From contig NC_043005.1 of the NCBI RefSeq assembly GCF_006345805.1, positions 64,170,001 to 64,234,000 on the forward strand: 64,000 bases of DNA, read 5' to 3'. Of the stretch, positions 50,910 through 51,207 are shown one piece after another (the first letter of the stretch is position 1; every line of letters begins with the position of its first letter). The notes under the pieces were generated by a model. That model was given only the letters and a program-made list of their open reading frames with translations. It was not told the origin of the DNA and did not search any database. Source of the DNA: Octopus sinensis (lineage: Eukaryota). A program made the position numbers and the translations under genes.

Positions 50910-51207
50910 ACTTTCTTTTATTAGCCAGACAGGGCTGAATACAGAGGGGACAAATACAAATGCAGAGCTTTTCTTTTCGAGGGTGGAAAAAAAGAAAATA
51001 AATGTAAGATTGCGATCAAAAGGGATCGAGAGGAGGGAAAAAAAGAAAATAAATCGTGTATCACAGAAATAATGATAAAAACATTGATAAAACAATATTG
51101 GGTTCATCCGTGGGAAGAAAAGCCTACAGAAAAGACCACGGGAACCTCAGTCAGGGAGGAAATAACCACATGAGATCAAAATGCTCTCTTTATTTCTTTT
51201 TTACGAT

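Follow-up and report, generated by a model that had tools for sequence, protein, structure and literature searches.

Several pairs of a short interspersed element (SINE) and a long interspersed element (LINE) that end alike at their 3′ side have been described, and they are the natural standard of comparison for a locus of Octopus sinensis at which a younger SINE subfamily ends on the same 43 bases as a LINE of the L1/Tx1 type. The locus lies in a stretch of 64,000 nucleotides (RefSeq assembly GCF_006345805.1, contig NC_043005.1, positions 64,170,001 to 64,234,000), called the window below, which is AT-rich and dense in simple repeats and SINEs; positions are counted from its first letter.

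The nearest parallels in form are UnaSINE/UnaL2 and the bivalve V, Core, Meta and Deu SINEs with CR1-Zenon, Nimb, CR1 and L2, where, as in the octopus, a 3′ end is shared and one SINE body is found with exchanged tails (PMC3747384, PMC11481361). Bivalve SINE–LINE pairs have been accepted with shared ends of 35–61 bp and 72–95% (PMC11481361), a range within which the 43 nt at ~75% of the octopus pair falls. The stringent pairs of these two papers differ from it in that their listed partners include no Tx1 LINE, and no compensatory stem change was seen in the octopus pair. An L1-superfamily LINE and a conserved non-poly(A) tail common to LINE and SINE are likewise found in ZmSINE2/3 with LINE1-1_ZM and in SINEX-3_CR with L1-1_CR, but these belong to plants and algae, do not involve Tx1, and have reported compensatory changes, of which none was found in the octopus pair (PMC3747384). 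In all, three tail-sharing SINEs of the L1 clade were counted by Ohshima (PMC3747384).

Tx1 LINEs have been connected with a SINE by a different route. The crocodilian SINEU, too, was probably mobilized by a Tx1 LINE, Tx1-Mar, and like the octopus SINE it lands at a fixed spot within another repeat (Kojima 2015, PMC4494074). SINEU begins with a U1/U2 head and ends in poly(A), and its partner was inferred from the shared target, as the paper found no LINE with the same 3′ part as SINEU-1. The same paper describes LINEs of the apurinic/apyrimidinic endonuclease (APE) type that are Tx1-like and reside inside simple repeats, i.e., Kibi in (TC)n, Koshi in (TTC)n and crocodilian families in (TTCC)n/(TTTC)n, which the octopus LINE resembles; compared by descriptions only, it differs from Kibi and Koshi in its target, (TATC)n, and in its mollusc host (PMC4494074). 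SINEs constitute 11.6% of the Octopus vulgaris assembly and are mostly unclassified (PMC13282606), with tRNA-Deu and tRNA-Core as the main octopus SINEs (PMC8967140). In the available parts of the literature searched (e.g., PMC3747384, PMC4494074, PMC11481361, PMC13282606, PMC4758252, PMC3531059, PMC8967140 and PMC4824008), neither a tail-sharing Tx1–SINE pair nor a partner for this SINE or for the SINEs of Octopus vulgaris was found, although Repbase, the SINEBase supplements, the octopus SINE papers or the 2015 octopus genome paper may already name the SINE or the pair. Within that literature the rarity of L1/Tx1 tail-sharing pairs, which the original prediction from the bare sequence had stated, holds.

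A 3′ end common to the SINE and the LINE

Comparison of the sequences suggests, with a probability of roughly 60%, that a younger SINE subfamily carries a 43-base end derived from a Tx1-like LINE, and that it was likely copied by the protein of the second open reading frame (ORF2) of that lineage. In the mechanism proposed, the older tails of an abundant SINE would have been replaced by a 43-base end homologous to that of a Tx1-like LINE dwelling in (TATC)n arrays, and the SINE with the new tail, called tail B, would be copied by the ORF2 protein of the LINE lineage. Because the same 43-base end is found in both, the SINE likely borrows the copying machinery of the LINE family. Two copies of this LINE lie in the window, one seemingly full-length (LINE1) and one truncated (LINE2; Table 1). 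The last 43 nt of LINE1 match the majority tail of nine SINE units at 33 of 43 positions with one gap, and the match stops at the 3′ terminus of both elements. Aligned to the 298-nt 3′ untranslated region (UTR) of LINE1, which has no poly(A), the majority tail scored 51, against a mean of 17.3 and a maximum of 34 for dinucleotide-preserving shuffles (0/5000); with LINE2 it scored 48 (0/5000), and one whole SINE copy gave scores of 49 (0/5000) and 46 (1/5000 with the UTR shuffled, 0/5000 with the SINE shuffled). When the window was divided into 850 tiles, scores above 30 came only from tiles with tail-B SINEs and from the two LINE ends, the best unrelated tile reaching 30 versus 46–51.

The common origin of the two tails that had been predicted is thus supported, and the similarity is significant against shuffled controls. 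The three tails that had been quoted are present in the sequence, as are all the similar SINE tails reported at 6855, 7038, 8381, 12630, 29330, 46506, 58537 and 58721; the SINE tail given as 43637–43680 is there as well, with its start at 43636, and the LINE segment given as 50910–50962 does hold the shared tail, with the similarity confined to the 43 nt of Table 1. A LINE outside Tx1 with a better match was looked for within the window, where nothing closer was found.

Neither LINE copy in the window is likely to be the donor, because the SINE tails are equidistant (~75%) from both while the two LINEs match each other more closely: over 38 ungapped columns, each SINE copy has 26–30 matches to LINE1 and 26–30 to LINE2, and LINE1 and LINE2 agree at 32. 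A sister or ancestral subfamily is the likely source. Further information came from contigs of four public runs (X1, X2, X5 and X8; four organism codes), in which the last six bases of the LINE family read GAAATA in X1 and X5, GAAACA in X2 and GAAAGA in X8. GAAATA ends eight of the nine SINE units, and the family end in two of the runs fits them better than either LINE copy of the window. Contig depth, which does not equal copy number, peaks at 50931–50950 in all four runs, and none of the 40 variants listed falls inside the LINE tail. None of the 24 loose contig ends listed lies in the SINE body, and contigs cannot prove absence. The LINE subfamilies have two conserved blocks in their UTRs, and the tail is one of these; 5′ of the 43-nt match, the SINE has a 22-nt linker of its own.

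The SINE family and its tails

A single SINE body accounts for 27 aligned units, i.e., nine with tail B (at seven loci), 12 with either of two old tails, one with a third tail and five with none visible. The tail-B units are 229–234 nt long and tail-B SINEs occupy 3.1% of the window. They diverge from their own consensus by 3–11%, and the 18 other units by 11–43%, which bears out the description of tail-B SINEs as young beside older copies with a different tail. Eight old tails were tested, and none resembled either tail B or the LINE (best 34/1000 shuffles in 48 comparisons), so that a tail swap in a younger subfamily is supported. Descent of tail B from the old tails, both of which contain CCTTGTG, was rejected as not rising above shuffles. 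The youngest copies carry AGTAAA instead of AATAAA, and (TTA)n-type ends are seen on old-tail copies and on no tail-B SINE.

Target duplications are clear at five of the seven tail-B loci (13–17 bp, one of them around a nested pair), unclear at one and not seen at one. The SINE head has an A-box-like word at position 13 and a B-box-like word at 77, and yielded no tRNA by ARAGORN and no match in Rfam; the central domain may resemble the Deu/Nin domain. Headless second units occur at three loci and all begin at the body word GGTATTT, with joints at 7038/7039, 43679/43680 and 58721/58722; the dimer next to 58537 is itself inserted in a decayed copy, at the corresponding place of the body. These head-to-tail dimers could come either from a dimeric master or from repeated landing at the GGTATTT site. 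Landing is favored at 43680, since the second unit there shows greater divergence and a different tail, whereas changes shared across both units at 6855–7250 favor a single event.

Table 1. Coordinates of the LINE copies, their flanking arrays and the SINEs with tail B in the window.
Feature	Position	Strand	Description
LINE1	50911..57115	-	L1/Tx1-type, 6.2 kb, seemingly full-length; ORF1 and ORF2 with stops and frame shifts
LINE1 ORF2 piece, reverse transcriptase and C-terminal zinc finger	51208..53334	-	RVT_1 1.7e-30, zf-RVT 6e-8
LINE1 ORF2 piece, APE-type endonuclease	53845..54642	-	Exo_endo_phos 1e-13; ATG at 54642
LINE1 ORF1 pieces	55217..56889	-	low complexity, one CCHC knuckle; zf-CCHC E 6e-4
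Terminal segment common to LINE1 and SINE tail B	50912..50954	-	43 nt; contig depth peak
Predicted hairpin AGCC/GGCT	50923..50936	-	4 bp, 6-nt loop, directly before AATAAA; pair probabilities 0.95–0.99 in whole UTR
Second conserved 3′ UTR block, predicted long-loop stem	51101..51153	-	47/53 (89%) identical to LINE2 25560–25612 (-)
LINE2	25309..26396	-	5′-truncated; sister subfamily of LINE1, 80% at amino acid level; tail 25309–25351
(GATA)n array, 3′ side of LINE1, target	50379..50909	.	simple-repeat array
(GATA)20, 5′ side of LINE1, target	57116..57195	.	simple-repeat array
(GATA)n array, 3′ side of LINE2	25101..25307	.	simple-repeat array
(GATA)n array, truncated 5′ side of LINE2	26397..26648	.	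simple-repeat array
SINE tail B dimer (full and headless unit)	6855..7250	-	17-bp target duplication
SINE tail B unit, older sub-type	8380..8608	-	before old-tail copy; 17-bp duplication around pair
SINE tail B monomer, older sub-type (AATAAA)	12430..12661	+	duplication decayed or absent
SINE tail B monomer	29135..29367	+	~15-bp target duplication with mismatches
SINE tail B unit	43446..43679	+	directly followed by headless, more diverged unit with other tail (43680–43830)
SINE tail B monomer	46507..46739	-	15-bp target duplication
SINE tail B dimer	58538..58954	-	13-bp target duplication; inside decayed SINE copy, body position equal to dimer joint

The LINE family and its microsatellite target

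The ORF2 of LINE1, spread over three frames, encodes an N-terminal APE endonuclease, a reverse transcriptase (RT) and a C-terminal zinc finger, and no RNase H (Pfam). Among solved structures, in a bank that holds few LINE clades, L1 endonuclease and ORF2p were the top matches, the endonuclease piece matching L1 endonuclease at 6e-11 to 8e-9. ORF1 has a single CCHC knuckle of 20.1 bits, slightly below the Pfam cut-off of 20.8; such an ORF1 zinc knuckle is a feature of Tx1 clade LINEs. A protein of Argonauta hians is 64% identical to the ORF2 of LINE1, and a cuttlefish relative is more distant, from which an octopod host was deduced. In an RT tree of 21 rows, the window protein falls in a group of seven (100/100) that contains both named cephalopod proteins and is nested in a group of 14 (85/94) together with a YTX2-labelled protein, the sole named Tx1 anchor of that tree; the tetrapod (99/98) and plant rows lie outside the larger group. 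A quick tree of 54 rows, three short rows having been dropped, placed the window protein as sister to the YTX2 group (SH-aLRT 85), and the top match in Atlas was a Tx1 149 kDa cluster, a name that was given automatically. Domain order and grouping with a Tx1-labelled protein thus agree with the L1/Tx1 type named in the original prediction. The LINE may be called Tx1-like, a candidate member of the Tx1 clade with moderate support from the trees. No related LINE loci or tails were found in the metagenome, viral and GTDB contigs searched. Two lone contigs link the LINE tail to the interior of ORF2 (51433 to 50923 in run X8, 51235 to 50928 in run X1); they are perhaps short tandem-inserted copies, a weak indication with one contig each.

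Both LINE copies are bordered at both ends by (TATC)n arrays, which read as GATA on the forward strand. The window holds four GATA arrays (1.7% of its bases), and each borders a LINE copy. The loose contig ends at 50917, which run on beyond the 3′ end of the LINE, are GATA arrays in all four runs (86, 97, 46 and 42 contigs; agreement 0.54–0.61). From the arrays around both copies and the loose ends in the four runs it follows that the LINE family targets the (TATC)n microsatellite, a point absent from the original prediction. That (TATC)n is merely the LINE's own tail is disfavored, because arrays are also found at the 5′ side of each copy, even where LINE2 is truncated. Target preference is common among Tx1 clade LINEs, if not universal, and (TATC)n was not named as a LINE target in the literature searched.

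The hairpin and the second conserved block

A hairpin, AGCC/GGCT, is predicted as the dominant fold at the end of both whole LINE UTRs (pair probabilities 0.92–0.99). Its energy in LINE1 is ordinary when compared with shuffles (z 0.18 for 66 nt, −1.87 for 50 nt), and an unusually stable fold is unsupported over 11 tails of 66 nt (z −2.7 to +1.2). The second conserved block of the UTR is predicted to form a stem with a 22-nt loop (fold z −0.91 and −1.78), and contig depth of the UTR is highest there.

The hairpin had been predicted to be kept in the SINE with changed pairs, and this was not confirmed. In alignment register, a G–C pair of the LINE is a G:G mismatch in all nine SINE units, and the small hairpin may be part of a recognition signal whose predicted pairing has slipped by one base in the SINE.

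Which LINE copies the SINE?

The SINE and the LINE behave, with the probability given above, like a tail-sharing pair with a Tx1-like donor, and the stem lends no support to membership in the stringent type. Several observations weigh against copying of the SINE by this LINE lineage. With the slip of one base, the SINE hairpin is predicted (at least 0.5) in four of the eight units folded, and the covariation analysis found none of the four pairs changed on both sides in either register among 11 rows, a comparison of low power, given that it had just two LINE rows and that the SINE copies are dead. The second UTR block, the more conserved of the two, is absent from the SINE (scores of 14–18 versus 82 for LINE2). 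The comparison with other LINEs covered this window only, and the Tx1 assignment depends on one named protein in the tree and on a cluster name that was assigned automatically. The landing sites also disagree, none of the seven tail-B SINE loci lying in a GATA array whereas both LINE copies do; the octopus pair is in this respect the reverse of SINEU/Tx1-Mar, with the tail shared and the targets discordant (PMC4494074).

The SINE sites are not entirely foreign to the LINE target. Two bases in, the 3′ junctions of tail-B SINEs resemble TATC at 18 of 28 positions (0.0004 against a random best of four offsets); leaving out one SINE-internal site gives 15 of 24 (0.003). For the targets outside SINEs alone, the likeness is 9 of 16 (p 0.07), and it is a weak, post hoc hint from seven sites: the likeness speaks for the copying, its post hoc nature and its drop outside SINEs against it. 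The mismatch of targets fits one endonuclease of loose preference, arrays being picked via pairing of the TATC-ending LINE RNA; it also fits a sister family with relaxed targeting, and related families do exist, as seen from proteins that reach 77% across the RT region and from diverging loose contig ends at 51302 and 51354.

The discordant targets lend themselves to an alternative, on the whole improbable, in which the tail came once from a Tx1-like LINE and is now a passenger, the SINE being copied by a more abundant, tail-independent LINE. The 25% divergence of the tail from both LINE copies and the in-register pair broken in every SINE unit agree with this, as does the recent activity of RTE, Dong-R4 and CR1 in Octopus vulgaris (PMC13282606). 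A passenger tail is harder to reconcile with its presence on the youngest SINE copies, which suggests that the tail confers an advantage, with the end of SINE and LINE family at the same base and the lack of (TTA)n-type ends on tail B, and with the TATC likeness, weak as it is, of the SINE sites.

Next in order, and likewise improbable, is a true partner in another LINE clade or a reverse transfer, i.e., a LINE end taken from the SINE or both ends from a third element. The LINE comparison being confined to the window leaves room for it, and the SINE linker with the first tail bases resembles part of a further repeat family found in the window (19/22; in four tail-B copies, 0–15 of 1000 shuffles), so that tail B could have a mosaic origin. 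Against it, the tail occurs as a fixed feature of two LINE subfamilies, whose proteins are 80% identical, and of four runs, and is found in only 9 of the 27 SINE units, from the younger part of the family; none of the remaining retroelement fragments in the window matches it. A chance resemblance, or convergence between two pyrimidine-rich ends with an AATAAA-like word, for which the shortness of the match, its T/C-rich start and A-rich end, and the AGTAAA of the youngest SINE copies might speak, is very remote and largely refuted by the shuffles, the single gap, the exact terminal position in both elements and the score of the best unrelated tile.

Other repeats in the window

The repeat family that resembles the tail-B linker is ~450–500 bp long and has an internal (TG)n(TA)n tract, beside which the 22 nt in question lie; its copies are at 13188–13683, 18515–18974, 32276–32656 and 45109–45605. 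An RT fragment followed by a GIY-YIG domain (40498–41572, minus strand) is likely a Penelope-like element, of which an 84-bp piece recurs at 43363–43445, just 5′ of the SINE at 43446. Two more SINE-like families have tRNA-like heads and other tails (19543–19739 and 60006–60195; 16764–17003, 28828–29109 and 47389–47702). A near-perfect palindrome of 193 bp (34082–34274) is possibly a miniature inverted-repeat element, and a minisatellite with a 134-bp period and ~9 copies occupies 1465–2664, with a related piece at 176–443.

Implications

The Tx1-like family that targets (TATC)n is a finding by itself. A much wider proposal, which is unlikely, holds that the expansion of the major young octopod SINE was due to a tail from a (TATC)n-targeting Tx1 LINE, as the first tail-sharing Tx1–SINE pair, and that the same ORF2 protein would send the LINE to GATA arrays and the SINE to dispersed TATC-like sites and to its own body, array targeting being supplied by the RNA end and not by the endonuclease alone. 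As the targets of LINE and SINE do not agree, the pair offers a natural way to tell a target chosen by the endonuclease from one chosen through the RNA end. A Tx1-type partner, if true, would give the three tail-sharing SINEs of the L1 clade (PMC3747384) a counterpart in animals, which bears on the question of whether the L1 superfamily inherited strict tail recognition from its ancestor, and it would name an engine for one wave of octopus SINE expansion.
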